UHGV virus genome: UHGV-2204636
Length of the DNA stretch: 15,617 nucleotides
From: a virus
Strand: one strand, 5' to 3'
Shown: in pieces, positions 542 through 15,128 of the stretch
Layout of the letters: the number at the start of each line of letters is the position of its first letter
Position numbering within the stretch: position 1 is the first letter of the stretch
Notes under the pieces: model-generated
What the model saw: the letters and a program-made list of their open reading frames with translations, nothing else
Told to the model about the DNA's origin: nothing
Database searches by the model: none
Program-made: the position numbers and the translations under genes

Positions 542-1579
542 TTAACGCTTATCCGCCACCAGTTTGAGCGCGTGTTCCAGCACATTAATGTCTGCACCCG
601 CTTTATGGGCATTTTCACTTAAATAACGCCGCCACTGCCGCGCGCCAGGAATACCCTGGAACAAGCCCAACATATGCCGGGTAATATGACCGAGATACGT
701 CCCCTGGCTGAGTTCACGCTCAATGTACGGATACATGGCGCGCACTACCGCCACCGGATCGGCATCGATATCCGAGGAACCAAAGATCTCCCGGTCTACC
801 GCCGCCAGAATACCCGGATTCTGATACGCCTCGCGCCCGACCATCACGCCATCCATATGTTGCAGGTGTGCTTTGGCCTCTTCCAGCGACTTGATACCAC
901 CGTTAATCGACATTGTCAGATGCGGAAAGTCACGCTTCAGTTGATACACACGCGGATAATCGAGCGGCGGGATCTCACGGTTTTCTTTCGGACTTAACCC
1001 CGAAAGCCAGGCTTTACGTGCATGGATGATGAACATCTCACACTCGCCTTTGCCGGAAACGGTGTTGATGAAATCGCAGAGAAATTCATAGCTGTCCTGG
1101 TCGTCGATGCCAATACGCGTTTTCACCGTCACCGGAATCGACACCACATCGCGCATCGCTTTCACGCAGTCGGCAACCAGCTGCGCATTACCCATCAGAC
1201 ACGCACCAAACATGCCGTTCTGCACCCGGTCAGACGGGCAGCCGACATTCAGGTTGATCTCATCATATCCACGCGCTTCTGCCAGCTTCGCACACTGTGC
1301 CAGCGCCGCCGGATCGCTACCGCCGAGTTGCAACGCTACCGGATGTTCTTCTTCACTGTACGCCAGGTAATCACCTTTACCGTGAATAATCGCCCCTGTG
1401 GTCACCATTTCGGTATACAGCAACGTATTGCGGGAAAGCAGACGCAAGAAATAGCGGCAATGTCTGTCCGTCCAGTCGAGCATAGGAGCAATGCTAAACC
1501 GAGAATTCCAGTAAACACCAGTTTTTTCAGGCATCACGCTGGTTTGATTAATTTTTTGTGTTTCATGATTATCGTGCAT
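542..1579 (-). CDS. dusA: tRNA-dihydrouridine synthase A; 5' end probably supplied by the integrated element; alternative start at 1534 (MPEKTG...)
   Basis: 345-aa ORF with the Dus TIM-barrel hallmarks ([31 protein letters not shown]); matches E. coli DusA as I recall it. No strong SD before either candidate start. Confidence 0.9.
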
Positions 1580-1611
1580 TTTTGAACATTTCAGGCTATT
1601 TTTCTCGCGTT

Positions 1612-1648
1612 AGGTTCCCGCACAGGTTCCCACGTTTTATGGGAACCC
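1612..1648. promoter_or_regulatory. Three GGTTCCC(A/G) motifs in the dusA-int divergent intergenic region: two direct copies plus an 8-bp inverted repeat GGTTCCCA-N7-TGGGAACC
   Basis: Motif at 1614-1620, 1626-1632 and inverted at 1641-1647, between the divergent dusA and integrase starts; candidate operator or recombinase/RDF binding sites. Confidence 0.3.
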
Positions 1649-1667
1649 GAAATAACGAGGTCGTGTA

Positions 1668-2765
1668 ATGGCGTACTATAACATAGAGAAACGACTAAAA
1701 TCCGATGGCACACCACGCTATCGCTGTAATGTGATTATCAAAGAAAAAGGTGTTATCACTTACAGGGAAAGCAAAACATTCCCTAAACATGCTCATGCCA
1801 AAACATGGGGCACACAGAAAGTGATGGAATTAGATCTATATGGCATTCCATCATCAAATGCAGTTGACGGACTTACAGTCCGTGACTTACTACACAAATA
1901 TTTAAATGACCCAAATGCCGGAGGTAAAGCAGGCCGTACTAAAAGATATGTGCTGGAACTGCTTATGGATAGTGACATCTCCGCGATCAAACTATCTGAA
2001 CTGACAGAAAATGACGTAATTGAACATTGCAGGCTAAGAAACAACGCTGGTGCAGGTCCTGCAACAGTCAGCCACGATGTTAGTTATCTTGGCAGTGTTC
2101 TGGATGCGGCCAAACCTGTATACGGAATTAATTACACATCAAACCCGGCGAAAAGCGCTCGCCCATATCTACTTAAACTTGGTTTGATTGGTAAATCAAA
2201 CCGTCGTAATCGTAGACCAGCATCTGATGAACTGGACATGCTCATTGCAGGCCTTCAACAACGATCTACTCATAAATGCTCAAAAATTCCGTTCGTTGAT
2301 ATCCTCAAATTTTCTGTATGGTCCTGTATGCGAATCGGAGAAGTATGCCGGTTACGATGGGAAGATCTCGACCAGGAACAAAAATCTATACTCGTAAGAG
2401 ACAGGAAAGATCCACGCAAAAAGGAAGGTAACCACATGAAAGTAGCCTTGCTTGGGGAAGCCTGGGATATCGTCCAACGACAGCCCCAAAAATCGGAATT
2501 CATTTTTCCATATAACAGCACTTCTGTTACTGCGGGATTTCAGAGAGTAAGAAGCAAATTAGGTATTAAGGATCTGCGATACCATGATTTGCGTAGAGAA
2601 GGGGCAAGTCGCTTATTTGAGGCTGGTTTTAGTATTGAGGAAGTCGCCCAAGTTACAGGGCATCGTTCATTAAACGTGCTATGGCAGGTATATACCGAAC
2701 TGTATCCGAAATCTTTACATAATCGTTTTGAAGAGCTCCAAAGGAGCAGAAATAAGACCTCTTGA
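1668..2765 (+). CDS. int: Tyrosine recombinase / phage integrase, in the position of a dusA-associated integrase
   Basis: 365-aa ORF with a GAGG SD; C-terminal catalytic signature (...RYHDLRREGASR... GHRSLNVLWQVY) typical of tyrosine integrases; divergent from and adjacent to the 5' end of dusA. Confidence 0.9.
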   Translation: MAYYNIEKRLKSDGTPRYRCNVIIKEKGVITYRESKTFPKHAHAKTWGTQKVMELDLYGIPSSNAVDGLTVRDLLHKYLNDPNAGGKAGRTKRYVLELLMDSDISAIKLSELTENDVIEHCRLRNNAGAGPATVSHDVSYLGSVLDAAKPVYGINYTSNPAKSARPYLLKLGLIGKSNRRNRRPASDELDMLIAGLQQRSTHKCSKIPFVDILKFSVWSCMRIGEVCRLRWEDLDQEQKSILVRDRKDPRKKEGNHMKVALLGEAWDIVQRQPQKSEFIFPYNSTSVTAGFQRVRSKLGIKDLRYHDLRREGASRLFEAGFSIEEVAQVTGHRSLNVLWQVYTELYPKSLHNRFEELQRSRNKTS

Positions 2766-2811
2766 CACTGTTTATCCATACAGTTAAAAATAATGCTGTA
2801 TACAAACACAG
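2762..2811 (+). promoter_or_regulatory. sigma70-type promoter (TTGACA -35, TAAAAA -10 at 17 bp) with a LexA SOS box CTGTATACAAACACAG
   Basis: Perfect -35 hexamer at 2762-2767 overlapping the int stop; CTGT-N8-ACAG with AT-rich spacer at 2796-2811, between the -10 and the RBS (GGAGGG) of the dinI-like gene. Confidence 0.6.
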
Positions 2812-2826
2812 TATGGAGGGACTTTT

Positions 2827-3075
2827 ATGCGTATTGAAATCTGCATAGCCAAAGAAAAAATGACTAAAATGCCAACCGGTGCTGTGGATGCGTTAAAGGA
2901 AGAATTAACCCGACGCATCAGTAAGCGTTATGACGATGTTGAGGTGTTAGTAAAAGCCACCAGCAATGATGGCCTTTCTGTTACACGCACCGCAGATAAG
3001 GATTCTGCAAAAACTTTTGTTCAGGAGACTCTGAAAGATACCTGGGAATCTGCTGACGAGTGGTTTGTTCACTAA
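2827..3075 (+). CDS. DinI-family damage-inducible protein (prophage DinI-like)
   Basis: 82-aa product [11 protein letters not shown]...[16 protein letters not shown] aligns by eye with E. coli DinI (MRIEVTIAK...ETWESADDWFV); strong SD; preceded by a LexA box. Confidence 0.85.
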
Positions 3076-3328
3076 TAAACACGTAAAATCTGTAACGGCT
3101 GGAAATCATTCAATACTCGCACTATCGAAAGTTCACCAGCCAACCGCAGCGCGTTCTTGCATACGACGTGGCTGCGGTCTCAACTCCGTCCCCCACCAAT
3201 CATGATTGGGCAGTACCAGTACAGCACTAGTAAAAACTGGAAATAAGCAGTCTCAGCAAAATACCGGCCAGACGGTGAGAAGACAAAAAAGATACGCAAA
3301 GTAGCCGCGGCCCTTAGTGACATGAAAT

Positions 3329-3349
3329 CCCGCTATACGGGCTTTTTTG
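3329..3349 (+). terminator. Weak terminator-like hairpin (CCCG-ctata-CGGG) followed by CTTTTTTGT
   Basis: Short 4-bp GC stem with a T6 run, inside the 350-bp non-coding gap downstream of the dinI-like gene. Confidence 0.3.
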
Positions 3350-3423
3350 TATCTGCACACGATTGATTATTAGGTCCGTATAGCTAATAGTGGTCTTAAC
3401 CTACATATAGAATCAGAGACTTT

Positions 3424-4119
3424 ATGAAAAAGGAAATACTCAAGGCTCTTTGCCCTACATGCGGTGGGTTACGTAACTGCACTGTGCATGGGAAGCTAAC
3501 CACTAGCTGGGAGGATTCCCAATATCCAGTTTATGGGTACCATTACCATCACCTACTCCAATGCAATGGCTGTGATACTGTCTTCTATCACCACAACGAA
3601 CACTTCAGTGAGCATACTACCCACGAATATCGTGATGGTGAATTTGTAGAAACGCCTATAGATATGATCACTACCTATCCTGCCGCTGAAACATTTCAAG
3701 CTCCGATATGGTTATCCAAGCTTGAATCAGTTGATCGTCAGCTCTTTCAAATATTTAATGAAATGTATTCTTCATATACTTCTGACCATTTCATTCTTTC
3801 GTCCATCGGTTTACGGACGATTTTTGATCGAACTGCTGAACTGTTACAAATTCACCCCGGTTTGCCGCTTGGTGAAAAAGTTGAAAAATTAAAACAAGAT
3901 GGAGTCATAGGCGACACTGAGGCATGCGTTATATCTTCAGTAATTGATGCAGGAAACGCCGCCGCACATCGCAGTTGGAGCCCGAATAAAAGTGAGTTCG
4001 AACAAATGCTAGAAGCTATAGAAAGTTTTGTCCAAAGAACTATCTTGGGCAAAAAATCACTTGAACATATAACCAAACAACTCCCACCTCGGGTTACAAG
4101 ACCTAAAAATAGTGCATAA
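3424..4119 (+). CDS. Hypothetical protein: N-terminal 4-Cys zinc ribbon (CPTC...CNGC) plus C-terminal DUF4145/HEPN-like helical domain; candidate defence or abortive-infection cargo gene
   Basis: 231-aa ORF, visibly AT-richer than the flanking tail genes; CxxC-N32-CxxC plus a His-rich stretch at the N-terminus; C-terminal LGEKVEKLKQDGVI...IDAGNAAAHRS resembles the conserved core of DUF4145 as I recall it (unverified). Confidence 0.75.
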   Translation: MKKEILKALCPTCGGLRNCTVHGKLTTSWEDSQYPVYGYHYHHLLQCNGCDTVFYHHNEHFSEHTTHEYRDGEFVETPIDMITTYPAAETFQAPIWLSKLESVDRQLFQIFNEMYSSYTSDHFILSSIGLRTIFDRTAELLQIHPGLPLGEKVEKLKQDGVIGDTEACVISSVIDAGNAAAHRSWSPNKSEFEQMLEAIESFVQRTILGKKSLEHITKQLPPRVTRPKNSA

Positions 4120-4145
4120 TCCGCGATCATCAATGTGGCGTAAGG

Positions 4146-4702
4146 CTATGGTTTACTTGCTACAGGGAATTTTTTATACACCGTTGAAATACCCAGATCA
4201 TAAATCAGTGCGACTTGCTGCTGATATATTCCCGATTCAATCAACCTGCCAGCCTGCCCCCATTGTTCTACTGTCAGCTTTGGCTTTCGCCCACCGTTCC
4301 TCCCTTCTTGTCGTGCTGCGGCAAAGCCGCCCTAGTACGTTCGACAATAAACTCTCGCTCCATTTCAGCCAGGGCACCCATCACATGAAAGAAAAAGCGC
4401 CCCATTGGTGTGCTGGTATCAATAGCATCCGTCAGGCTGCGAAAATTAACGCCACGTTCGCGCAACTCTTCCACCAGCACGACAAGATGCCGCATACTGC
4501 GCCCCAGTCGGTCCAGTTTCCAGACCACCAGCGTGTCACCTGCCGATAATGTCCTGAGCAGCTTTTTCAGTCCTGGTCTGTCGGACTTTGTACCGCTTAT
4601 CTTGTCTTCAAAAATCAGCTCACATCCTGCACAGTTCAACGCATTACGTTGTAGATCGGTGTTCTGGTCATTTGTTGATACGCGAACATAGCCAATAAGC
4701 AT
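4146..4702 (-). pseudogene. pin: Serine recombinase / DNA invertase of the Pin/Gin/Hin/Cin family, interrupted by a 1-nt frameshift near 4320-4323
   Basis: Frame A (4322-4702) encodes MLIGYVRVSTNDQNTDLQ...GRFFFHVMGALAEMEREFIVERTRAAL (catalytic domain, Ser in VRVSTNDQ). Frame C (4146-4322) encodes AAARQEGRNGGRKPKLTVEQWGQAGRLIESGIYQQQVALIYDLGISTVYKKFPVASKP (HTH domain), matching e14 Pin. Total length 557 nt is not a multiple of 3. Confidence 0.7.
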
Positions 4703-4731
4703 GATAGCTCCTCCTGACAAAAACAGGAACG

Positions 4732-5103
4732 ATGCCATTTGCGCGCTATTTCTGCATTTTCATAAACGTTGGTTTGGGAGAAGCGGCAAAACGGAATGTG
4801 GGAACAGGGAAAAATCAGATACCTGATATGTCAGCTTATTCATCAGGATCTGGCTGGCAAAAATTGCCTGATGGTTCAATTGAACAGTGGGGAAGAATTA
4901 ATTTCCCGTATAACGCCGCGGCGGTATCTACAAATGTGACTTTCACCATTCCTTTTACGCAGGAGCCAGACGTAGTGATTGTATATGACGGCGGTTTTGG
5001 TGGTGGGAATATGTGGGGCGCAACTAACTGGACGAAAACAGGTTTCGTTGCTCATTGTAACTATGGCTTTGAAGGTGGAGCCTTCTACGCGAAAGGGCGT
5101 TAA
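4732..5103 (+). CDS. Silent alternative tail-fibre C-terminal cassette (Sv'-like); the ATG at 4732 is probably fortuitous, the cassette is expressed only after inversion
   Basis: ORF shares the VGLGE junction with the expressed fibre gene at the crossover site, then diverges (AAKRNVGTGKNQ...); no independent N-terminal fibre domain. Confidence 0.55.
   Translation: MPFARYFCIFINVGLGEAAKRNVGTGKNQIPDMSAYSSGSGWQKLPDGSIEQWGRINFPYNAAAVSTNVTFTIPFTQEPDVVIVYDGGFGGGNMWGATNWTKTGFVAHCNYGFEGGAFYAKGR
4757..4782. other. Invertase crossover site (gix/pix-like 26-bp imperfect palindrome), invertase-proximal copy
   Basis: TTTTCATAAACG-TT-GGTTTGGGAGAA; its reverse complement shares TTCTCCCAAACCAA with the site at 6573-6598; resembles hix/gix half-sites. 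Confidence 0.55.
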
Positions 5104-5105
5104 TT

Positions 5106-5546
5106 ATGAAATATTTGTATGTTGATAATCTGGCGTACCCTTATGCCCTCCAGTCTGTTTACGCTGCAAAAGGCCAATGGCCCGAAGGTAAAGGCGTGGA
5201 TATAGACGAAGCTATTTTCAGGGAATATTTCCATGATACGCCGCCTGACGGTAAGTACAGAATTACCGGAGACGATGGAATGCCAGCATGGGCAGATGTT
5301 CCACCGCCAACACGTGAAGAACAAATTGCATCAGCCGAAACTAAAAAGCAGCAATTGATTAATCAGGCCAACGATTATATGAACAGTAGACAATGGGCTG
5401 GTAAAGCGGCTATTGGTCGTCTGAAAGGTGAGGAACTGGCGCAATATAATTTGTGGCTGGATTATCTGGACGCACTGGAGCTGGTCGATACTTCCAGTGC
5501 ACCAGATATTGAATGGCCTACTCCTCCGGCAGTTCAGGCCAGATGA
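5106..5546 (+). CDS. Tail fibre assembly protein (Tfa / Mu U'-like), partner of the silent cassette
   Basis: 146-aa product with the conserved Tfa C-terminal motif (...NLWLDYLDALELVDTSSAPDIEWPTPP); immediately follows the cassette ORF. Confidence 0.85.
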   Translation: MKYLYVDNLAYPYALQSVYAAKGQWPEGKGVDIDEAIFREYFHDTPPDGKYRITGDDGMPAWADVPPPTREEQIASAETKKQQLINQANDYMNSRQWAGKAAIGRLKGEELAQYNLWLDYLDALELVDTSSAPDIEWPTPPAVQAR

Positions 5547-6120
5547 CATCCGGCGCGGTGCTGGTATCTGTTGCCGTCACCGCGTCAATGTAATCCAGCA
5601 CAGCGTTAAGTCGGGTTGTTTCTGCCTGCGTCAACTTCCGTCCGGCCTGTAATTTCAGCTGAATCAGACTAATGGAAGCCATTGCTGCATCAATCAGTGA
5701 CTGGCGCTGTGCTTCTGCTGCGTCTACTGCGGCACTATGCTGTGCCTCAGTATCCGTCACCCATTTCTCACCATCCCATTTATCGTATGGCGTTAACGGG
5801 GCGATAGTGGTTGTATTTTCGGGGTAATCACCCAGAGCTGTGATTTCTTTGGCGTCTCCCGTTTCGGTGTTATAGACGATTTCACCGCGATGGTCTGGCA
5901 CATATTCCCATGAGTTTAAATCTGCCGAACGGCAGATTGCATAACCAGCCTTATGTATACCAGGTTCATCCAGACAGGAATATGCCGGGATACCAACACC
6001 AACGGCAAGATATTCATTTGAAGTGGAAATATATTCCCGAGTTTCACCATCATAGCTATAGACGGTAATATCCCCCGCCTTCGTGGCAATAAGCTCGCTA
6101 TTTAATACAGCGTTATCCAT
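5518..6120 (-). CDS. Tail fibre assembly protein (Tfa / Mu U-like), partner of the expressed fibre
   Basis: 200-aa product with C-terminal ...LNAVLDYIDAVTATDTSTAPDVIWPELPEE motif; convergent with and overlapping the U'-like gene by 29 nt. Confidence 0.85.
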   Translation of the reverse strand: MDNAVLNSELIATKAGDITVYSYDGETREYISTSNEYLAVGVGIPAYSCLDEPGIHKAGYAICRSADLNSWEYVPDHRGEIVYNTETGDAKEITALGDYPENTTTIAPLTPYDKWDGEKWVTDTEAQHSAAVDAAEAQRQSLIDAAMASISLIQLKLQAGRKLTQAETTRLNAVLDYIDAVTATDTSTAPDVIWPELPEE

Positions 6121-6878
6121 TATTCAGCCCTCACGATAAAGTTAAATGCAATATTTCGCGCACGTGTTTCCGTTGATGTTCTGGCAACAAGTGATGCATC
6201 AAAATAATAATTCGCCTGTTTATATGTACCACCTATCGCAATTGGTGTGAGATTTGGTTGCACTATTGAAGAGGTAAATGCGCCGAAAGTATTATTATTT
6301 GTCCCCGTGGTCATATCAAAAAAGCTACCTGTAATATTTTGCAGCGTATCGCTCTGAGCACTCAATAACGCTCGCCCACTGTCCACTCCACGCCCATCAT
6401 CCCAGCCACGAATAAACTCACCCCGCAGATCTGGCAGCACAAGACCGGGGTAAACCAGTGCCAGCTTCGGATAATTTTTAGCTGCAAATGGAGCGCCGTT
6501 ACATTTCAGCCATCCTGTTGGTGGAGTGGCTAAAGGCCACGGAACAGGCACACCAACGGGTAATGCCGAACCTTCTCCCAAACCAAGATTTCCGAGAGCC
6601 GTTTTCACGGTGCCATCCGATTTGATATCGCCAAACGGATTTGAGCGACTCAGTAACAGCGCGTTTAGTGCTGTTAATAACTGGTTTTTTTTAGAAGGAT
6701 CAACATTAATACCGGCAGCGTTCAGGACAGTAATAAGCTCCGACTGCGCATCTCTGACAGCCCCCTGCACGTTATTCAGATGCTCAGCATCAACAATGGT
6801 CCCCAGCTCACCTGTGAGCGGATTACCATCATGGAAAAGATTATCCGGCGTCTGCACCGGTGGCATTAAGGGCCGCAT
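6120..6878 (-). CDS. Tail fibre protein (constant N-terminus about 6586-6878 plus currently expressed variable C-terminus 6120-6585)
   Basis: 252-aa ORF; start overlaps the stop of the upstream gene (TAATG); contains the crossover site at the GLGE codons. Confidence 0.85.
6573..6598. other. Invertase crossover site (26-bp imperfect palindrome) inside the tail fibre gene
   Basis: TTCTCCCAAACC-AA-GATTTCCGAGAG; inverted relative to the site at 4757-4782. Confidence 0.55.
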
Positions 6879-7450
6879 TATTCATTCTCCTGATATGCGA
6901 AGTAGCAAAATGTATGGGCTGGTTTGAGATCACGGAAGACGTCTTCAATAATCGGATCACCAAACGTTGTCAGGCGCTCACCTGCAGCTGAACTGCCTGA
7001 GCGAAAGCGATAGGATTGAGTTCCTGAGTTCTGAATATTGACGCGCCAGACCCAGATAATGTCTTCAACCCAGAGGCGATCACCGGCGCGGCCAACTCCC
7101 GCCCTGAAAGGTTGCGGTTCATCAATTGTGATGATGTAGCCAAGGTTGCTTGCCAACTGAGTAAAGTACGGAATACTGAGACCACCGACTTCAGCCAGTT
7201 TAGCCAGTACACGCTGCTGGCGTTGCTGGTATGTCGCACCTTCAGCAGGAGTAAGGTCCAGGACGCGTTCCCAGTCATACAAAAGGCTGCGTGCATAAAA
7301 TGGAGTAACTCCACCTTCAACAAGCCCTGCAGACGCATCGAGAGTCTCAAAAACACCTGATTCAGATCGCAATGATGCATCAAGCAGAGGCTGGCCCGGG
7401 CTGTACGAAACAAGTGGCAGCAGACGATTTAACAGCGTGAAGTAGCTCAT
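6878..7450 (-). CDS. Phage tail/baseplate protein, Mu gp48 / YmfQ (DUF2313)-like
   Basis: 190-aa ORF translationally coupled between the baseplate J-like gene and the fibre gene, the position occupied by gp48/YmfQ in Mu- and e14-type tails. Confidence 0.75.
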
Positions 7451-8514
7451 AGCAGCTCTACCTCAACGTTTCCTAATTTGAGCCATTCGACTTTCGTGGC
7501 ATCGATTATCGGTTGAATATTTGCCGATGGTGTAACGATGTCATAGTCGGTAATACCCGGAATTAGAGAAATCAATGTCCCCGCCTGGCTGCGAATAAAA
7601 GCCACTCCAGGCTCTCGGCGCGAGTCATCGTCCTCCAGCGTTCCGGCGACAGCCTGTTTGGCTGCTGCGAGGGTGATGCCCTCCAGTGATACCTTCACGA
7701 GGACGTCAAATGTACGGATGACAGGTATGAGCACCAGCGTGTTTTTTGCTGTAACAGGCCGGACATCGTCAATGTGAGCCTGCACCCTGTCGATCACATC
7801 CTGAGATGGCAGCCCACCTGCAGACGTGATCACAACATCAACGGTACCCGGCCCCCGCCGCAAAGGGTAAACATATGCGGCGGATACGCCTGATACCTCA
7901 AGCGCCCAGCGTTTGTAATCATATTTATTGCCGCCTGCAGGAGGTCGGCGGATGATTTCAAGCAGACGAGCAAGCAGCTCTGCATCCGTTTCCTCATCTG
8001 TTCCGCCAGTCATCAGGCCTACTGTCACTGTGCTGTCAAACCCATCAGGTGTTGTGGTCAGTGTGGCCGATGTGACGGAAGTGGTGTTACCAGTGGTTCC
8101 GGCCAGAGAAGACACTGCGTTTACCGATGATTTTCCATCTGACCCGACAATAATATCTTCGGTTGTTGTCCACGAAACACTGTCGCGTTTGAACACAAGA
8201 CCGGCAGCGGCCACCGCTCCTGGTTCGCCGGTAAACGTGGCAGGCCCGGAGGCGCTGTTGGCTGCTTTTTTGCTTAAACCACGTAAACGGGCGTGCAGAT
8301 AGAGGAATTCCGAATCAGCAGTATCCGGAAAGATCTGACGGACTATCCATCCCTGATGCTGATAAAGCCCCTCGGCAACACTGGCTACACTCGATGCCCG
8401 GATGTACCAGTCGCTGTCCGGGCCCAGCGTATCATCTGACAACTGCAGGAGATTTTTGATATCCCGCAGAATGTCAGTGCGTATTTGCGCGGCATTTTTG
8501 GTAATGAATGGCAT
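7447..8514 (-). CDS. Baseplate J-like protein (Mu gp47 / P2 gpJ family)
   Basis: 355-aa ORF; position and size fit baseplate J; 4-nt overlap with the downstream gene. Confidence 0.8.
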   Translation of the reverse strand: MPFITKNAAQIRTDILRDIKNLLQLSDDTLGPDSDWYIRASSVASVAEGLYQHQGWIVRQIFPDTADSEFLYLHARLRGLSKKAANSASGPATFTGEPGAVAAAGLVFKRDSVSWTTTEDIIVGSDGKSSVNAVSSLAGTTGNTTSVTSATLTTTPDGFDSTVTVGLMTGGTDEETDAELLARLLEIIRRPPAGGNKYDYKRWALEVSGVSAAYVYPLRRGPGTVDVVITSAGGLPSQDVIDRVQAHIDDVRPVTAKNTLVLIPVIRTFDVLVKVSLEGITLAAAKQAVAGTLEDDDSRREPGVAFIRSQAGTLISLIPGITDYDIVTPSANIQPIIDATKVEWLKLGNVEVELL

Positions 8515-8864
8515 CAGCTGACCTTAACCGGATATTTCCAGGTCTGCGGCGTTCCGCTCGCAGACGTGACGGTGATATGAAGCAGCATCCAGCCTTTTTG
8601 CCAGTGCTCTGCAGTAACGGAAATGGACTGGGCGCGACCGTCGTCAATAATCGGTTGCAGGGCCTGCCGCGAATACTGCACCGCGAGTTGTTGAACGCGA
8701 GACACATCCTTTTCGCGGCGGAGTGTATGCAAAAGAGAGCCCAGAGTTGGATCAGCCCACCATGAGCCAAGGGGCGTCATCAGCCGTAAGTAGACGGCAT
8801 TCGCTAAAGAGTCTGAGCTGTCGCCGGTATAATCGCCGGTCGTTGGATCAATCAACATTTCCAT
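8514..8864 (-). CDS. Baseplate protein, Mu gp46 / GP46-family (gpW/gp25-like)
   Basis: 116-aa ORF directly upstream of and overlapping the baseplate J-like gene; start region lies in a hairpin, so the exact start (8864 or 8858) is uncertain. Confidence 0.7.
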   Translation of the reverse strand: MEMLIDPTTGDYTGDSSDSLANAVYLRLMTPLGSWWADPTLGSLLHTLRREKDVSRVQQLAVQYSRQALQPIIDDGRAQSISVTAEHWQKGWMLLHITVTSASGTPQTWKYPVKVS

Positions 8865-8953
8865 GCCGTAATACTACCGGCATGGAAATTTAAATTATCG
8901 GTGAAGGGGTTCAGTGGGTATTGCTTTTGAAGGAGAACTTACGTTACCACAAA

Positions 8954-9559
8954 TTACATTTGCTGATTAGGTTTCTGCGTTGTGCCTGCATCACCGCCGT
9001 GGTCGTGGTCGTGACCGTCATAAGTCTCACGCATGGTGTTCAGCGTAGACTTGCCGTCAGCGACTTCATTACTGCCTTTCAGCAATGGTGTATCAAAATC
9101 TGCCCGCTCTGAGGCTGTGGTTTTATACGTTTTGGTATTAACAATATGTTGTTCGGTATTCACCGTGTGCTTTTTAGTATTAACGATATATTCATCGCAG
9201 TTTACTTCAATTATTTTTCCGCGCTTCAGAATAATGTTGCTTCCTTCATCCGAATAAATGGCAAGCTCACCACTTTTCAGGCTCTTTAGCCTGTATGCAG
9301 CGTGTTCCGTGGCAATCACCACGCTATGACTGGTGCGCCCGTTAAGCGGGAGCACAATGGCTTTAGTCCCCCTGGGCGGGTTGGATGTAAAACCGTACTG
9401 CTGAAACATCTCCACATCCTGCAAAGACTCAGTGGCCAGACCTTTACCCTGAATGGTCTGAATATCACCACCGCTGTTAACCCTTATTAAAACGCCCCTG
9501 AAGGCCTTTCTTATACGGTTTAACGCCGTGTTAATACGAGAGTCAATTTTGTTCCACAT
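8954..9559 (-). CDS. Baseplate assembly protein V / spike (Mu gp45-like)
   Basis: 201-aa ORF following the hub gene; His/Asp-rich C-terminal tip (DGHDHDHGGD) typical of spike proteins. Confidence 0.75.
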   Translation of the reverse strand: MWNKIDSRINTALNRIRKAFRGVLIRVNSGGDIQTIQGKGLATESLQDVEMFQQYGFTSNPPRGTKAIVLPLNGRTSHSVVIATEHAAYRLKSLKSGELAIYSDEGSNIILKRGKIIEVNCDEYIVNTKKHTVNTEQHIVNTKTYKTTASERADFDTPLLKGSNEVADGKSTLNTMRETYDGHDHDHGGDAGTTQKPNQQM

Positions 9560-10760
9560 CGATAATCTCCAGCTCTTTATTTACTTTGGCGCGACGCTTA
9601 CGTGATTTGCGTTTTTTCGGATAAGCATCCGGTATCCATATTCCATCCTCTTTGAGCCGCAGGGTGGTAATGGTGTTGTCTGGACGACCACCTGAAAACT
9701 CTCTTCCCATGAGGAAGTAAATGTCATCAATGCCATGTGGCTCGCTTCGGACACGAATACGCTGGCCCGGTTGCCATAACTGACCGTTCTCCATGCGATG
9801 GCCTTTAACAATTACTGTCAGATCAAACCCGTTCAGACGGGCGTCAGCCATGGCCTTTCTCGCGCGATAATCAACCTGCGCCTGATTATCAGCATCACCA
9901 GCAACCATAATCTGCGGACGATAGAAAGGTACGGTACTGTCGCGAACGGTACTACGTAAGCCATGAAAGCCATTCTCTGCAGAGCCGGTGCTGTCATAAA
10001 TTGCGTCGGCATCATCATCGTCTTCAGCCTCAGCGCTCTGATCATCAACGTCAATAACTTCCAGTCTTCCTGACTTTTTCCCCTGGCCGTGTCCCTGTGC
10101 CAGCATTGTCAGTTCAGAGAACGCACCGGTAATGGATGACCGGTCACTGAGATCGAGGACATTATTTCCCCGACCGTCACGATTCAGAACAAGCGTGGCT
10201 ACAGGGTCTTTTGTGTAATCCGGCCCTCCAATTACCAGCGTGCCATCTGGCTCAAACCATGGCCATAACCCGCGTGCAGCAGCTGCACGCTCAAGGGTAT
10301 CCCACGCACGTTCTCCGGGCTCCACGCTGACCTTGTCATTACGCAGGGATGACTCAGCCTCGATGCGGATGTTCGTTATCCCCAGCGGTCTGACAACCTG
10401 GGCGATCACCTCTTCAAGACTGAGCTGGCGGGAGGTAAAAACGGGTGAAGCGCAGTCAACAAGCACGGCTGCACCATCGCGACCGGAAAGAGATAAAGAA
10501 ACCTGCTGACGGGATACCCGGCGCTGAACCACATCCACCCGACCGGACATGACAACATCATTACCCACCCTGACCAGCACCGGCACACCACGTTTAATGG
10601 CCGGAGGGAAAATACCATCAGGCAGCCCAAGCGTTACGCTCCATGCATCGGAGGGGATCAGAAAATCGGAGTCAATCTGATAGCGGCTCCATGCACTATG
10701 GATTTTGCCATCAATAACCAGGCTCACTGTATTCTGCGAATCTTTATCTTGAGTAGGCAT
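9543..10760 (-). CDS. Baseplate hub / tail protein (Mu gp44, phage late control D family)
   Basis: 405-aa ORF overlapping its neighbours by 17 nt on both sides; conserved position between the DNA-circularisation protein and gpV-like genes. Confidence 0.8.
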   Translation of the reverse strand: MPTQDKDSQNTVSLVIDGKIHSAWSRYQIDSDFLIPSDAWSVTLGLPDGIFPPAIKRGVPVLVRVGNDVVMSGRVDVVQRRVSRQQVSLSLSGRDGAAVLVDCASPVFTSRQLSLEEVIAQVVRPLGITNIRIEAESSLRNDKVSVEPGERAWDTLERAAAARGLWPWFEPDGTLVIGGPDYTKDPVATLVLNRDGRGNNVLDLSDRSSITGAFSELTMLAQGHGQGKKSGRLEVIDVDDQSAEAEDDDDADAIYDSTGSAENGFHGLRSTVRDSTVPFYRPQIMVAGDADNQAQVDYRARKAMADARLNGFDLTVIVKGHRMENGQLWQPGQRIRVRSEPHGIDDIYFLMGREFSGGRPDNTITTLRLKEDGIWIPDAYPKKRKSRKRRAKVNKELEIIDVEQN

Positions 10761-12075
10761 TCAGAACGTCACCGGCTTTGATATTGTTAGGATTACGTAG
10801 TGTCGGATTGAGACGCAGCAACTCGGCGGCGCGCGTGTAGTCCTCATACCACAGGTGGGCCAGCAAATGCAGGTTTGTGTCGGACAATACCACTCGCGTA
10901 GTCAGTGGTGGTCTGCTGGTAATAACCGCTGAGCCCAGCTCCTGAACGGTCAGGGCGATATCCTTGAGACCTTCAACCACGGGTTGCCAGGTCACGCCAC
11001 CCGGTGTTTCACCGGCGCTCACGTTTTGCGTATCGGCAGCAAAGGTGTCCCGCGTCTGGTCGATTGCCGTCTGAATGGCCGTCCTGGTGTCGTTGGTGAT
11101 CTGCTCAATATCGACTGGAGACAGAATATCGCTGATGCTGCTGTCACTGAGTATGTCGGAAGCATCAAGCGCCAGCTGGATTGCAACCTGGATTTTTACC
11201 GCCGTTACCAGCTCAGTAATATCCGAGGTTGATGAGCCTGCCGGAACAGCAACAGCAACAGTCTTTTGCCCTGTCACTATCTGCTGAGGTAATGCGGCCA
11301 CATCCTGCAGATTGTTACGGCCATTCTTCCAGTCGGCCATCACGATGCCCGCTGTACCGGAAACGTCTGAGGACTGTGAATAGCTTCCTGGGTTATTACT
11401 GACACTTGATTTGGACTGAAGCGACGTCAGACTCAGCGCACTCTGCAGGTCATTCATGAACGATTTTGGGTAATTAACAAAATCCGAGGTGGTACTGACA
11501 AATCCCGTCAGTTCCCCCTTAAGCACGGTCACCATATTCAGCGTCGTGGTTGCCAGCGATTTCGCTTTTTTCATCCACTTTTTCGCTGTACGCAGAGGCG
11601 AGAGAATATTGTCGATGGCCGTCTGGGCTTTCTCCAGAGCGGATTGCGCCTGGTTGAAAACGATATCAGCTTTCGACAGCGGGAAATCGCTGCCAAAGAA
11701 AGGCAGATTAAGTCCCCCCTGGATAAAGACCACTTCGACAACGCAGTAATCAACGTTCTCCGCTTCATGCGATGCCTGATACTCAATGCACTGCATGCCC
11801 GTCATGGAGCCGAAAACGGGATGAATTAATTCTGCGCTACCGCGAGTATCCAGTGCGGCCAGAAACGCCTGCAGCCGCACATCATAATCATCACCCCAGA
11901 AAAGGACTGTCATCCGCAGGTTACGAGGCTTGCGGCCAAGATCATCAACATCACCACCGTCGACATAGGGATACTCATACGTCGCAATGTCGCGACTGGC
12001 GCTGTCACGGGTATTAACCACATCAAAGCGGACGCCCCTGAATGAGGCATCCTGTAATGAATCTTCCCAGCTCAC
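10744..12075 (-). CDS. DNA circularisation protein (Mu gp43 / N-like)
   Basis: 443-aa ORF immediately downstream of the tape measure gene (4-nt overlap), the canonical position in Mu-like tails. Confidence 0.75.
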   Translation of the reverse strand: MSWEDSLQDASFRGVRFDVVNTRDSASRDIATYEYPYVDGGDVDDLGRKPRNLRMTVLFWGDDYDVRLQAFLAALDTRGSAELIHPVFGSMTGMQCIEYQASHEAENVDYCVVEVVFIQGGLNLPFFGSDFPLSKADIVFNQAQSALEKAQTAIDNILSPLRTAKKWMKKAKSLATTTLNMVTVLKGELTGFVSTTSDFVNYPKSFMNDLQSALSLTSLQSKSSVSNNPGSYSQSSDVSGTAGIVMADWKNGRNNLQDVAALPQQIVTGQKTVAVAVPAGSSTSDITELVTAVKIQVAIQLALDASDILSDSSISDILSPVDIEQITNDTRTAIQTAIDQTRDTFAADTQNVSAGETPGGVTWQPVVEGLKDIALTVQELGSAVITSRPPLTTRVVLSDTNLHLLAHLWYEDYTRAAELLRLNPTLRNPNNIKAGDVLNAYSR

Positions 12076-14213
12076 TGCGGGCCTCCTGTTGAGCCGCGAA
12101 CGGATTGTTCGCCGTTGTATTCATTAACAGCTGATGCAATTTCACGTCCGTCTAATACCAGCTTTGTGGTGAGGTTAATGGGCTGTGATTTTTGTTGCTG
12201 TTGGGGCAAAAGATAAGACGGCACGCCTGTTGTTGCTGGTGTGTTTTGCCCCATCGTGGCCGGAGAACTCCACCATGATTTGACCTCATCCACGACATCC
12301 AGCAATCCGGGGCGGGCTTTTACTGCATCCAGCATGCGTGCTGACTCACTGGAATAGTTGTCAACCTTAAGCCGCGCACGTGCATCAGCATCACCTCGCT
12401 CAACATGAACAAGTGGCGCATCCTGCATACCCTGATAGAGGGCCAGTGGGGCTAATACCTTGCCAGCTCCGCCACGAATAACGGACCAGGCACGCCCAAG
12501 AGCAGATCCCCCTGCAGTCGGCACTCCACCGCCAGGAGAACCAGGCATTTTTATTCCGCCGCCAGTAAGGAAGTTGAGCCCGGCAAAAGCTACAGCCGCC
12601 GCTGTCATGGCTTTAATGCCCGTGGTGGCACCTGAAATAGCAGTTGTTAATTCAGGATATTCTTTAGCGTAATCAGAAAGTTTTGACGTCAAATCACCAT
12701 ATAAATCGGCGACAGGTTTCATTGCATCCTGCTCAGAGAACATTTTCTCTGATTCAAATTGTTGTGATTTAAAATCATTAGTTGATGAGATCACATCATA
12801 TGAAGCAGCACCAGCGCCAACGGAATCACGCGTTCCTGAAATCTGCTCCTTAATGAAGTCTTTTTTCATTATGCTTGTTTTTAGTGCGGTACTGGCCTGC
12901 TGGTCAGCAACTATTTTCGATGTAATTGAGGAAACTATAATATCCAGTGAGGCAAGGATATCTTTCTCCTTGTCCGTCCCTTTAAATTTCGTAGCCTGAG
13001 CCCGTAATTTCTTCACTCGTGGGTCGGCTGAAACAATACCTGATACTGCATTGGTGAATGCATCAGAAGTATTTACGCCTGAAAGTCGCTGGTCAGCCAT
13101 ATAATCAGCATAGGCAAGCATCCTTCCGTCTTTAGTCCTGAATCTTTTATTTTTTAACGCATTCTGAGTGTCAGCACTGGTGTATTTATCAAGCAGGTTA
13201 TTAACGTTTGTTGATGCAGCGCTATTATCACCTGCTGTTTCAGCGTTAGCCTGTAGCATTGCGAGAATTACATCCAAATCTTTTAACCCTGACATACCTA
13301 CAGCGTTAGCTTTTGTCATGGTTAAAGGTAATGAACCAGCCATATCAGCAAGTTCATATTTACCATTCTCACCAGACCTGATGGTTTTATCAAATACCGC
13401 TGGCAAATCCTCAGCCTTTATATCAAAGTTCTTAATTGCACCAATAGCAATACGAGCAAGGTCATTAGGGTTTGCACCTGAGGCCGTAGCATAACGAGTA
13501 ATATCCGGCAGGATTTTTAATGCCGTTTTATCATCAAGACCACCTGCGAAAAGCGAATTAATAGTTTCCTGTGCAGCCTCCGGTGTTCCACCGCCATAAC
13601 GAACAGCCCCACGGATTGCATTATTGATCTCAGGTATTTTCTTAATACGGTCTGGCGCTGAGAGGTTGTTATAAGCGGTATTTGCAATCTCAGCATTACG
13701 CCGTTCGTAAGCCATCTGACGCTGAACCGGGTCTTTTATAATCATACCCGCAGCAGTTAACCCACCGGCTACTGCTGCCACGGTTGAACCTGCAGCACGG
13801 AATCGCTGCATGCGCGTCATTGAGTCATTGACGCCGCCAAGCTCAGTTCGCAGCGCTTTGACCCTGTCAGTCATGGCCCTGAAAGCCCGGTTCTGCTCAT
13901 TTGCGGACAGCATACCTGTGCGGGTAAGGCGATTATAGGCCGCCATGGTCTGCTGTATTTCGCGCTGTATTTCGCGCTCTGAGCGAATGCCAAGAGTTGC
14001 TCGCGCCGAACTGGCGCGACGGTATTCCTCAATCAGAGAACGGGAGGCACGAATCGCTGTGGTTGAGTTCTGCTGACGGGATTTCGCCAGCTCATCATCG
14101 GTTTTTTGCGCCGCTTTGGTATCCCGGCTGATGCCCTGGAGTGCCTGTTTAAGCACTTTGGAGCCGGTATCACGGGCAAGCAGCTGCAGCGCCAGTTGTA
14201 AGTTACGCGCCAT
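12072..14213 (-). CDS. Tail tape measure protein
   Basis: 713-aa ORF, Ala/Gly/Gln-rich and predicted helical, with a GGAG SD; preceded by the chaperone gene and its frameshift extension. Confidence 0.85.
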   Translation of the reverse strand: MARNLQLALQLLARDTGSKVLKQALQGISRDTKAAQKTDDELAKSRQQNSTTAIRASRSLIEEYRRASSARATLGIRSEREIQREIQQTMAAYNRLTRTGMLSANEQNRAFRAMTDRVKALRTELGGVNDSMTRMQRFRAAGSTVAAVAGGLTAAGMIIKDPVQRQMAYERRNAEIANTAYNNLSAPDRIKKIPEINNAIRGAVRYGGGTPEAAQETINSLFAGGLDDKTALKILPDITRYATASGANPNDLARIAIGAIKNFDIKAEDLPAVFDKTIRSGENGKYELADMAGSLPLTMTKANAVGMSGLKDLDVILAMLQANAETAGDNSAASTNVNNLLDKYTSADTQNALKNKRFRTKDGRMLAYADYMADQRLSGVNTSDAFTNAVSGIVSADPRVKKLRAQATKFKGTDKEKDILASLDIIVSSITSKIVADQQASTALKTSIMKKDFIKEQISGTRDSVGAGAASYDVISSTNDFKSQQFESEKMFSEQDAMKPVADLYGDLTSKLSDYAKEYPELTTAISGATTGIKAMTAAAVAFAGLNFLTGGGIKMPGSPGGGVPTAGGSALGRAWSVIRGGAGKVLAPLALYQGMQDAPLVHVERGDADARARLKVDNYSSESARMLDAVKARPGLLDVVDEVKSWWSSPATMGQNTPATTGVPSYLLPQQQQKSQPINLTTKLVLDGREIASAVNEYNGEQSVRGSTGGPQ

Positions 14214-14216
14214 GGA

Positions 14217-14740
14217 TTATCTCCGTTTGCCGACTTTCTTCCGGCGTTGCGATTTGACAGTGCGGGTTGTGCGGGTGGTAGTTTGCCCGGTTTTCTTTCC
14301 ATGTAACCGGGCAAGTGCTTCGGTGTAGCCGTCGAGTTCCGTTCGGGTCATGCTTCCGATTTGTTGTTCACTGATACCGTATCGCCCGAGGGCGAGGACG
14401 AGGGTTCGGTACCCGGTGAGCTTTTGTTCAAATCCATCCGCTTTTTTTTAATGGCTTCAATCTGAGCATCGATGAGATCGAAATCATCATCATTCAGCTC
14501 GTTAAGGAGCAGCTCCGCCGTAATTTCTTCCTTTGGCACATCTCCGAGGGCAGTAATCGCACACGCCATTACCGCAACACGGTAATACATGTTTGCGGCT
14601 GCGCCTTCGGTAGTGCCGCAGGCTTCATCGGTTGCCCGCAGCGCTTCAATGGTATCGCTCACCACAGGCAGCCTGACGGCAAAGTCAAAATGGACTTTAT
14701 CACCGTATTTAACGCCATATAAAAGCTGCTGCTTTTCCAT
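14217..14740 (-). CDS. Tail assembly chaperone, -1 frameshift-extended isoform (G-T / E+E' analogue)
   Basis: After the slippery site the -1 frame stays open for ~76 codons (ADGFEQKLTGYRTLVLALGRYGISEQQIGSMTRTELDGYTEALARLHGKK...KRR) and stops at 14217-14219, one codon before the tape measure ATG. Confidence 0.5.
14348..14740 (-). CDS. Tail assembly chaperone (lambda G / P2 E / Mu gp41 analogue), zero-frame product
   Basis: 130-aa acidic ORF between the tube and tape measure genes; contains an A AAA AAG slippery heptamer near its 3' end. Confidence 0.75.
   Translation of the reverse strand: MEKQQLLYGVKYGDKVHFDFAVRLPVVSDTIEALRATDEACGTTEGAAANMYYRVAVMACAITALGDVPKEEITAELLLNELNDDDFDLIDAQIEAIKKKRMDLNKSSPGTEPSSSPSGDTVSVNNKSEA
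14441..14447 (-). promoter_or_regulatory. Programmed -1 ribosomal frameshift slippery heptamer A AAA AAG
   Basis: Minus strand reads GCC ATT AAA AAA AAG CGG in the chaperone frame (dnaX-type heptamer). Confidence 0.5.
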
Positions 14741-15115
14741 TTATTCCTCCACCCGACGAAGCGCATTCATGGTGATATCGCGCTTCGCTTCGTTGTCGAC
14801 GGTATACTGAGCCCCGGCCTGAGTGCTGAAGCAGTCCAGGTAAGAAACACGTTTACCGCTGCTGTTCAGTGGATACTGGGTGATTTTCGCACCTTCAATA
14901 CCGCCCCAGTTCAGGTCGCCGGACTCAGGGATGACTACCGTAACGGTCAGCTGGATCTCTTCGATGCCACGGGAGAAGCCTTTGGCGCGGCCCGTTTTGT
15001 TCATCGTCTTCACAAGCTTTCGCCCGGTGGTCACATCTTCCTTGAGGTCGGTCACTTCAATTTCCTGGCCGTCGACTTCCATGACGATCGCGCCAACATA
15101 TTCTTCAAGAGCCAT
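14741..15115 (-). CDS. Tail tube protein (Mu gpM-like)
   Basis: 124-aa ORF between the sheath and chaperone genes; its stop abuts the chaperone start. Confidence 0.75.
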   Translation of the reverse strand: MALEEYVGAIVMEVDGQEIEVTDLKEDVTTGRKLVKTMNKTGRAKGFSRGIEEIQLTVTVVIPESGDLNWGGIEGAKITQYPLNSSGKRVSYLDCFSTQAGAQYTVDNEAKRDITMNALRRVEE

Positions 15116-15128
15116 TCTGGTTTACTCC

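Follow-up and report, generated by a model that had tools for sequence, protein, structure and literature searches.

The window, that is, the whole stretch of DNA analysed here (15,617 nucleotides), carries near its left end two divergent genes followed by a long run of phage genes, and the features are collected in Table 1. The minus-strand open reading frame is identified as dusA, which serves in tRNA modification, by the Dus domain PF01207 in Pfam (E 2.2e-104) and by its match to the DusA equivalog NF008774 in NCBIfam (559 bits), and the plus-strand open reading frame encodes a tyrosine integrase (gene int, protein Int) that matches PF00589, Phage_integrase, over residues 188-346 (E 8.4e-21). 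As an earlier note on this DNA had observed, the two start codons face away from each other across 88 bp, and the listing of open reading frames and the sequence agree on a gap of exactly that length. The phage genes that the note saw continuing rightward of int are likewise present, and comprise a DinI-like gene, a DUF4145 gene, a Pin/Gin-type invertase and genes for tail fibre, baseplate, tape measure, tube and sheath. An Rfam scan of the whole window gave no family at the gathering score, PADLOC matched neither the DUF4145 nor the DinI-like cargo protein to a defence system, and no toxin genes were seen in the window.

Table 1. Features of the dusA-integrase locus and of the adjoining prophage, in window coordinates.
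Feature	Position	Strand	Remarks
dusA open reading frame, chimeric, intact	542-1579	minus	345 aa, K-12 length; ORF listing, Pfam, NCBIfam
Host-derived part of dusA	542-1475	minus	ORF nt 105-1038; 98.8% identity to K-12, 11/934 mismatches
Extended imperfect att repeat TCGGTTTAGCnTTGCnCCnATGCTCGAnnGGAnGnAC	1466-1502	minus	Codons for RFS(I/V)APMLDWTD; four-way alignment
attL common core ATGCTCGA (plus strand TCGAGCAT)	1476-1483	minus	8 bp; dusA ORF nt 97-104, codons 33-35
phi-dusA', phage-supplied dusA 5' end	1484-1579	minus	ORF nt 1-96, residues 1-32; 81% identity to native dusA (78/96)
Divergent control region, phage-derived (P arm of att site)	1580-1667		88 bp between int and dusA start codons
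GGGAACC, direct copy 2	1613-1619	minus	Candidate arm-type integrase-binding site
GGGAACC, direct copy 1	1625-1631	minus	Candidate arm-type site; 12-nt spacing
GGGAACC, inverted copy	1641-1647	plus	Candidate arm-type site
Tyrosine integrase open reading frame	1668-2765	plus	365 aa; PF00589
Visible remainder of prophage	2827-15617		Runs off right end of window
DinI-like cargo gene	2827-3075		
DUF4145 cargo gene	3424-4119		
Pin/Gin invertase, truncated	4146-4738		
Invertible tail-fibre segment	about 4764-6591		
Mu-type baseplate, tape-measure, tube and sheath genes	right of tail-fibre segment		

Judged by its sequence, the integrase is a member of the dusA-associated integrase (DAI) family (Farrugia 2015; Durand 2021). 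It is 98.6-99.5% identical to the integrases of mEp460, phi1720a-02, phiSTEC1575-Stx2k and Lys8385Vzw (98.6% over 365 aa for mEp460 and 99.2% for phi1720a-02), and 36% and 34% identical to those of BcepIL02 and DC1, respectively, over more than 94% of its length. Since mEp460, BcepIL02 and DC1 were all named as DAI homologues by Farrugia et al. 2015 (PMC4482086), the earlier assignment of this protein to a family of integrases that targets dusA is upheld. Four traits of the family are found at the locus, namely a tyrosine recombinase domain, homology to known members, divergence from the 5' end of dusA, and a junction that leaves an intact 345-aa reading frame. Residues R222 (MRIGE), H306-x-x-R309 (YHDLRR), H332 (GHRS) and Y342 are invariant in four integrases of 68-99% identity and, on motif inspection, form the putative catalytic RHRH tetrad and nucleophilic tyrosine. 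Published accounts to date treat the integrases of this family as Rci-like recombinases and give them a 21-bp target motif.

Compared with K-12 DNA, the dusA reading frame changes abruptly at the core: nt 1-96 hold 18 mismatches in 96 positions, nt 97-104 none in 8, and nt 105-1038 only 11 in 934, a step that is far beyond chance (Fisher exact p = 9e-13 for 18/96 vs 11/934). The protein follows the same pattern, in agreement with the impression that its N-terminus is unlike that of K-12 before the two converge: nine of the first 32 residues are changed (G3D, S5H, M7T, A15V, D21G, H23Y, S25N, G26S and V30I), T271I is the single change thereafter, and the beta-1 strand motif RFS(I/V)APMLDW is preserved in the chimeric DusA. 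The earlier note had held that the element supplies a replacement 5' end for the gene, and such a piece is indeed found, in frame and of equal length, and adjoins int in the attP of free mEp460 as well. The 88-bp region between the start codons is also like the mEp460 attP, and is unrelated to the DNA upstream of K-12 dusA (23/100 matches, ungapped).

The four att sites were compared with one another, using K-12 as attB, the free phage mEp460 as attP, the window as attL, and, as attR, the genome L001, which does not differ from the window at the junction. The core ATGCTCGA is the only stretch identical in all four, and arm-specific bases flank it on both sides. In the left arm, attL matches attP at 173/180 positions (a span that includes phi-dusA') and attR matches attB at 180/180; in the right arm, attL matches attB at 177/180 and attR matches attP at 58/60, whereas the cross-combinations of arms match at just 100/180 and 20/60. 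On these alignments the core is the strand-exchange region and holds the crossover. The comparison with an uninterrupted K-12 dusA, which the earlier note had proposed, hence places attL in this 8-bp core, and the junction falls within the first ~100 bp of the gene as anticipated there, at most 4 bp from the start that the note gave the insertion. The core agrees as well with attB of Citrobacter rodentium, TCCAGTCGAGCATGGGAGC, and with the core of 7 bases published for phi1720a-02 (PMC6328086), the counterpart of the phi1720a-02 site in the window being TCCAGTCGAGCATAGGAGC at 1471-1489, and the extended repeat is the equivalent of the 21-bp, semi-conserved motif that Farrugia et al. described for attL and attR (PMC4482086). 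Natural host alleles of the core are ATGCTTGA and ATGTTAGA, and attL is of host type from core position 4 or 6 onward; the linkage between core alleles and downstream SNPs is mixed (14 vs 4) and does not fix the cleavage positions within the core.

A displaced dusA 5' fragment with a core repeat had been expected at the other prophage end, and it is found ~39 kb away in sibling genomes, the far end of the present prophage lying outside the 15.6-kb window. Three siblings carry window positions 1400-2800 at 100% identity, each with a 100% attR ~39 kb away, in which a native dusA 5' fragment is followed by ATGCTCGA and the phage arm. In L001, the fragment is annotated as a partial 'tRNA-dihydrouridine synthase' pseudogene at 40544-40648, the distance from core to core is 39,069 bp, and the attR variant is present in 210 genomes. 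The attR predicted for the present prophage would read ...GGTTTAGCGTTGCACCA-ATGCTCGA-TAGGATGTACCGTTTTTG..., a dusA 5' fragment with ATGCTCGA and TAGGATGTACCG. Across attP from int, a gene of the PrtN family (PF11112) is encoded in L001, mEp460 and YeP1 (E 3e-23 to 3e-24). A PrtN homologue occurs in 64% of DAI islands (Farrugia et al. 2015, PMC4482086), excision as circles, with native dusA restored, has been shown for islands of Acinetobacter and Pseudomonas (PMC4482086), and the role of RdfN, a member of the PrtN family, as excision factor has been shown for IMEVchUSA3 (Durand et al. 2021, PMC8409611).

The int and dusA junction is present in 728 of 5426 complete E. coli genomes. No genome colinear over at least 80% of the whole window was found among the complete E. 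coli genomes searched, so the rest of this prophage may differ from that of L001. A scan of IMG/VR with the integrase alignment returned 80 loci, almost all of one E. coli lineage and 88-100% identical, with 49 in the attL form and 3 in the attP form; because this set was too uniform for diversity, diverse attP sites were drawn from GenBank phage records.

Window positions 1476-1483 are very probably the attL site of a temperate phage with an integrase of the mEp460 type, put into E. coli dusA by a dusA-associated integrase. At first sight, the divergent DusA N-terminus could pass for an ordinary allele, with the island upstream of an untouched dusA and the junction outside the gene, in that the chimeric reading frame has the length of K-12 DusA and 23 of its first 32 residues are unchanged. 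Yet it is exactly at ORF nt 97-104 that the mismatch density falls, from 18.8% to 1.2%, the same 5' piece adjoins int in free mEp460, where it continues into phage DNA and not into dusA, and the native 5' piece sits displaced ~39 kb off in sibling lysogens, which together leave this reading a vanishingly small probability; plain allelic variation of dusA was ruled out by the four-way att comparison. A more serious rival, which we regard as unlikely, is that the prophage is cryptic or in decay and locked at dusA, with real att anatomy in a copy past excising or making particles. The Pin/Gin invertase is cut to 154 aa and has lost the HTH, PGAP labels it 'frameshifted' in L001 along with two further pseudogenes, and the tail module of the window (about 6.7-15.6 kb) is colinear with none of the dusA prophages in 5426 complete genomes, so that recombination has reshuffled it; the view of the prophage is moreover confined to 15.6 kb. 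However, the invertase defect is common to apparently complete 39-kb siblings and has no effect on integration or excision, the structural reading frames in the window are all open, and attL retains an intact core and intact arm heptamers. The int reading frame is full length with its putative catalytic residues all kept, and its product is 99% identical to the Int of mEp460, PhiR40_1 and phi1720a-02, which are phages isolated as virions or induced.

In the attL reading, the attP of the circular phage consists of the ~100-nt phi-dusA' (81% identical to that of the host), the core ATGCTCGA and the phage right arm; chromosomal dusA has the same core at codons 33-35, and Int would recombine the two. 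The attL product comprises int, the 88-bp control region, phi-dusA', the core and host dusA nt 105-1038 in succession, which yields an intact, in-frame DusA of 345 aa, and the attR product, ~39 kb rightward in siblings, carries the displaced native dusA 5' end, then the core, then the right arm of the phage. The PrtN-family gene that adjoins attR would be the excision factor RdfN of the family, and excision by Int and RdfN would restore native dusA. The present comparisons show the att anatomy, whether each segment comes from phage or host, and, through near-identity, the family membership; activity is carried over from experimental work with near-identical or related elements, namely from phi1720a-02 (integration 100 bp into dusA and a circular attP), from the requirement for RdfN, and from the new promoter of IMEVchUSA3.

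The earlier note had credited the element with a replacement promoter for dusA; a sigma-70 promoter and terminator scan of both strands over 1350-1850 gave 0 matches, and the claim derives from experimental work on another dusA element, IMEVchUSA3, for which a new dusA promoter has been reported (PMC8409611). In a lysogen, weak signals carried by the phage, within the 88-bp region or past it, may drive transcription of dusA.

The heptamer GGGAACC occurs three times in the whole 15.6-kb window, and all copies lie within 35 bp between the two start codons. Among 10 phage sequences and two Acinetobacter elements taken from a published supplement, heptamer positions are shared and the sequence differs, with 7 distinct heptamers in the 10 phage sequences, and each full attP has heptamers in its P arm and in its P' arm. 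In all 7 full attP sites, the P arm has one inverted and two direct copies at 12-nt spacing, and the P' arm has two copies at 11-nt spacing, 45-70 nt past the core. By chance, direct repeats of a 7-mer with a spacing of 10-13 nt are expected in 1.4-2% of cases per 100 nt, and they were observed in 8 of 10. A chance repeat was rejected for GGGAACC, given its confinement to this one cluster and the conservation of position across lineages. The heptamers are not mentioned in Farrugia 2015 or Durand 2021; repeated att-arm heptamers are not described in PMC4482086, and the word 'arm' appears 0 times in its main text.

From layout and sequence, the heptamers are probably arm-type sites of the integrase, and are named here as candidates. 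Five lineage-specific heptamers, three of them at 1613-1647, would be bound by the N-terminal domain of Int and give a lambda-like att site of ~300 bp. The domain itself is weakly hinted at in the N-terminal ~60 aa of Int, a possible arm-binding domain: in relaxed Pfam searches, PF14657 (Arm-DNA-bind_4) scored below threshold in four of eight homologues, with an E value of 0.042, and was absent from the protein of the window, and PF24624 (Int_N) scored below threshold on Int residues 72-165 (E 0.029). A PDB profile search for an arm-binding domain in Int gave spurious matches alone (E above 0.1), and a single-sequence AlphaFold model of Int was unusable (pLDDT 42, pTM 0.26). This want of a firm arm-binding domain in Int (Pfam, PDB profile search, AlphaFold) speaks for the alternative that the heptamers are operators, through which a transcription factor or RdfN controls divergent int and dusA promoters, as do their location exactly between the int and dusA start codons and the presence across attP of a gene for RdfN/PrtN, a DNA-binding protein. 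Operators are nonetheless rather doubtful, for a heptamer pair 11 nt apart in the P' arm of every full attP is the layout of integrase arm sites and not of a promoter operator, and a mini-element of only attP and int integrates at dusA (PMC8409611). Moreover, heptamer identity follows the residues of the Int N-terminal hairpin: YeP1 and Kp4887-1 have GGGGTGC in common along with the motif GKY-x-(Y/H)-REN, and BcepIL02 and GP4 have GTAGCAA in common along with LMRDGK. A broader arm-site proposal, tentative and with almost even prospects, is that dusA-associated integrases are heterobivalent integrases of the lambda type, whose five fixed-position attP heptamers are read by, and co-evolve with, the N-terminal hairpin of Int. 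The three GGGAACC sites take up the 88 bp from the start of int to the phage-supplied start of dusA, so that Int occupancy would, in this proposal, also set int autoregulation and the host DusA level in every lysogen.

The arrangement of a dusA-targeting attL is already known, having been described and tested for nearly identical phages. A close comparison is mEp460 (JQ182728), which shares the Int/attP module (left arm, phi-dusA', core and heptamers; 173/180 to the phage part of the window) and the same DinI-like gene downstream of int. As a lambdoid siphovirus, however, mEp460 bears a side tail fibre like that of lambda, whereas the prophage of the window has a Mu/P2-type contractile tail with an invertible fibre segment, and the two have the integration module alone in common. 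The Stx2dact phage phi1720a-02 (KF030445) was shown by experiment to insert 100 bp into dusA of Citrobacter rodentium with an in-frame, phage-encoded phi-dusA', its 7-base core lying inside TCCAGTCGAGCATGGGAGC, and excised attP circles were detected (PMC6328086); it differs in carrying stx2 and lambdoid late genes and in its host species. The islands of the DAI family show no essential difference: there too a tyrosine recombinase diverges from the 5' end of dusA, semi-conserved att repeats span the APM(L/M)DW codons, the island replaces the beta-1 strand along with the dusA 5' end, and a PrtN homologue is encoded at the opposite end of an island of about 40 kb (PMC4482086). Similarly, IMEVchUSA3 and other Vibrio dusA islands use the same target and carry RdfN across attP from int; unlike phages, they are SGI1-like mobilisable islands under AcaCD from IncC plasmids, with a distantly related Int (PMC8409611).

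For lambda Int and attP, the likeness would lie in a short core, in repeated arm motifs in the P and P' arms over about 230-300 bp, and in a separate small directionality factor. The N-terminal domain of Int, however, has no detectable sequence relationship to that of lambda, and the core of the dusA phages is set within a protein-coding gene, which receives a new 5' end from the phage. A further difference is that int and the excision factor stand on opposite sides of attP, so integration separates one from the other. The SXT/R391 ICE, inserted in the 5' end of prfC, belongs to an unrelated integrase lineage with an unrelated target, and is a conjugative element and not a phage.

The main value of the attL finding is that it confirms good annotation practice: dusA is a phage-host chimera in roughly 13% of complete E. 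coli genomes, and a 105-bp 'partial tRNA-dihydrouridine synthase' pseudogene ~39 kb off marks the other end of the prophage. As the integration module is common to Stx2-converting phages, att sites defined to the base pair are of use in typing prophages and in the design of excision assays. For the family, the position-conserved and lineage-specific heptamers offer a testable model for integrase assembly on attP, and suggest how integrase binding might couple to the expression of the repaired dusA.

The arrangement proposed in the earlier note, in which an integrase start codon lies 88 bp from, and divergent to, that of dusA with phage genes continuing rightward, is recovered at the coordinates tabulated below by ORF listing and Pfam; rightward of int follow DinI-like, DUF4145, Pin/Gin-type invertase, tail-fibre, baseplate, tape-measure, tube, and sheath genes. 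In order to locate attL, as had been suggested, by alignment against an uninterrupted K-12 dusA, four att partners were compared, namely attB of K-12 MG1655, attP of the free phage mEp460, attL of the window, and attR of E. coli MEI148-20EC, a sibling genome that is 100% identical to the window across 1400-2800. By alignment and base counting, the partners pair up around an 8-bp block, ATGCTCGA: attL agrees with attP (173/180) and attR with attB (180/180) on its left, and attL with attB (177/180) and attR with attP (58/60) on its right, whereas the cross-combinations are loosely similar or unrelated (100/180 and 20/60). This reciprocal pattern is as expected of site-specific exchange partners around the block, and it places the junction within the first ~100 bp of dusA, as predicted.

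Features of the window, with the secondary integration junction from other genomes
Feature	Position	Strand	Remarks
pspG	166-408	minus	
dusA	542-1579	minus	345 aa; PF01207 Dus, E 2e-104 (Pfam); DusA also by NCBIfam
att core ATGCTCGA	1476-1483		dusA ORF nt 97-104, inside PMLD codons; four-way att alignment
int-dusA gap	1580-1667		88 bp, start codons divergent
GGGAACC, direct copies	1613-1619 and 1625-1631		12 nt apart
GGGAACC, inverted copy	1641-1647		
int	1668-2765	plus	365-aa ORF; PF00589 Phage_integrase, E 8e-21 (Pfam)
DinI-like cargo gene	2827-3075		PF06183; also adjoins int in mEp460
DUF4145 cargo gene	3424-4119		Cys-rich segment at protein N-terminus
Pin/Gin-family serine invertase, truncated	4146-4738	minus	154 aa; resolvase N-terminal domain only, without C-terminal HTH
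20-nt inverted repeat AAACGTTGGTTTGGGAGAAG / CTTCTCCCAAACCAAGATTT	4764-4783 and 6572-6591		90% complementary; flanks ~1.8 kb
Mosaic breakpoint	6641-6772		
Secondary-site junction	L034 (IMG/VR locus) 400-1012; NZ_CP024131.1 4612527-4613139		

Mismatches between the window dusA and K-12 number 18/96 ahead of the core, 0 within it, and 11/934 beyond it (Fisher p = 9e-13); on the strength of this step and of the att match pattern, dusA nt 1-96 (1484-1579) is phage DNA and the remainder host DNA. The chimeric DusA keeps the K-12 length and the RFS(I/V)APMLDW strand and carries 9 substitutions among residues 1-32, so the impression that its N-terminus departs from K-12 before converging was correct, as was the view that the element supplies a replacement 5' end. 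An element-borne dusA promoter, by comparison, rests on analogy, because a consensus scan of 1350-1850 on either strand found no sigma-70-type promoter.

The right prophage end falls outside the window, and attR is described from sibling genomes; the displaced dusA 5' fragment and core repeat anticipated at the far end are present there, ~39 kb away. In MEI148-20EC, the native dusA 5' fragment (40544-40648, a partial tRNA-dihydrouridine synthase pseudogene in the PGAP annotation) encodes MHGNSEMQ...APMLD before passing into phage DNA and a stop, and the core-to-core distance from attL to attR is 39,069 bp. All three genomes (3/3) that are 100% identical to window 1400-2800 carry a 100% attR match ~39 kb off, and the MEI148-20EC attR variant is present in 210 genomes. 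On the prophage side of attR, close to it, is a PrtN-family gene (PF11112; rdfN), with counterparts in mEp460 and Yersinia phage YeP1. Between rdfN and attR in MEI148-20EC, 39355-40403 holds a Panacea-domain protein and an adjoining small hypothetical gene, a pair that may be PanA-type toxin-antitoxin cargo; in mEp460 the corresponding position is taken by two other small ORFs, so this is a variable moron slot beside attP.

The prophage is also carried by hosts whose dusA allele has ATGCTTGA or ATGTTAGA in place of ATGCTCGA (IMG/VR L075, L027, L057, L039, and others), and in these attL has host-type bases starting at core position 4 or 6; the exchange point appears to lie at or beside ATG(C), and mismatches elsewhere in the core seem to be tolerated. 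In three lysogens (IMG/VR L050, L058, and L080), the phage-supplied dusA 5' end (phi-dusA'), ~90-190 nt upstream of int, is itself chimeric, being phage-type over ORF nt 1 to ~60 and of native K-12 type between ~nt 62 and the core. This pattern suggests that the phage and host 5' segments, which are 81% identical, have undergone homologous recombination or gene conversion as well as the site-specific core exchange. One secondary integration site lies outside dusA, near yjdP/rpiB, where ...GCTCCTATGC marks the end of the same int and phi-dusA' segment before the foreign DNA begins; ATGCGTGGCTGGGCGCACAG there bears a loose resemblance to the dusA site, and the junction is rare (1/5426 complete E. 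coli genomes).

The identification as a dusA-associated integrase (DAI) arrangement is upheld by the att comparison, the junction position, and the 98.6-99.5% identity of the window Int to those of mEp460, phi1720a-02 (Stx2dact), phiSTEC1575-Stx2k, Lys8385Vzw, and several induced ECOR phages. The DAI family was defined by Farrugia et al. 2015 (PMC4482086), who named mEp460 among phage-borne homologues and described a single site in the dusA 5' end, att repeats that are semi-conserved, a replaced 5' end and beta-1 strand, frequent PrtN homologues, and islands excised as circles. Balasubramanian et al. 2019 (PMC6328086) demonstrated insertion of phi1720a-02 in the dusA gene of C. rodentium, 100 bp from its start, with a 7-base core inside TCCAGTCGAGCATGGGAGC (compared with TCCAGTCGAGCATAGGAGC at window 1471-1489) and an in-frame phi-dusA', and sequenced the excised attP circles. 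Durand et al. 2021 (PMC8409611) showed that RdfN, the PrtN homologue, is the excision factor, and that a dusA element brings with it a new N-terminus and a new promoter, the latter weaker. The window junction is accordingly an already known system, with near-identical integrases characterised experimentally, and the arrangement is common (728/5426 complete E. coli genomes; 49 attL and 3 attP forms among the IMG/VR loci examined).

Beyond the integration module, window 1-6641 matches dusA prophages at 94-99%, the best match to 6772-15617 (baseplate to sheath) is a tail module elsewhere on the FDAARGOS_1303 chromosome (93.8%), and the window as a whole is colinear with none of the complete E. 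coli genomes; the prophage is therefore a mosaic. Both cargo genes sit in the stretch from int to the tail genes, and neither protein matched a PADLOC defence model. The segment bounded by the 20-nt inverted repeat contains an alternative C-terminus of the tail fibre (4732-5103), a pair of opposed tail-fibre assembly genes, and the fibre-gene 3' end (6120-6878); the repeat resembles pix/gix, the crossover sites that border an invertible host-range segment. The identical invertase region in MEI148-20EC is "frameshifted" according to PGAP; tail-fibre switching is probably frozen, barring another invertase in trans, and the truncation bears on this switching, not on integration.

The heptamer GGGAACC occurs only three times in the window, all inside 35 bp between the int and dusA start codons, and in mEp460 and MEI148-20EC, GGGAGCC and GGGAACC stand 11 nt apart in the other arm, ~45-65 nt past the core. 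Other DAI phages have a different heptamer at the same positions, altered in concert at all sites: GGGGTGC in YeP1 and Klebsiella Kp4887-1 (Int 68% and 51.5% identical to the window), GGTGTCC in Morganella IME1369_02 (68%), GGGAGAC in Salinivibrio SMHB1 (55.6%), GTAGCAA in BcepIL02, GP4, and JBD90 (35-36%), and GTGGTAA in Pseudomonas phage Haddon (32%); sequences printed in the Farrugia supplement give GGTGTAA for A. baumannii D1279779 and GGTGCAA for the dusB element of A. baumannii ACICU. A 7-mer direct repeat with 10-13-nt spacing arises in 1.4-2% of shuffled 100-nt upstream regions, as against 8/10 observed, and SNPs of the E. coli lineage in the 88-bp region hit spacers and spare the heptamers.

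Heptamer identity tracks Int residues ~20-35, where GKY-x-(Y/H)-REN is common to YeP1 and Kp4887-1 and LMRDGK to BcepIL02 and GP4; judged from these sequences, the heptamers are best read as candidate arm-type sites of a lambda-like heterobivalent integrase. A rival reading would make them operators bound by RdfN or by some other regulator. Pfam searches of Int gave sub-threshold hints of an arm-binding domain, and a PDB profile search gave no match. The word "arm" is absent from Farrugia 2015 (PMC4482086) and Durand 2021 (PMC8409611), and a full-text literature search for dusA with "arm-type" returned incidental mentions only, a description of such sites elsewhere being possible. The residual value of the analysis lies in the base-pair-exact att coordinates and in the model of the heptamers as arm-type sites.
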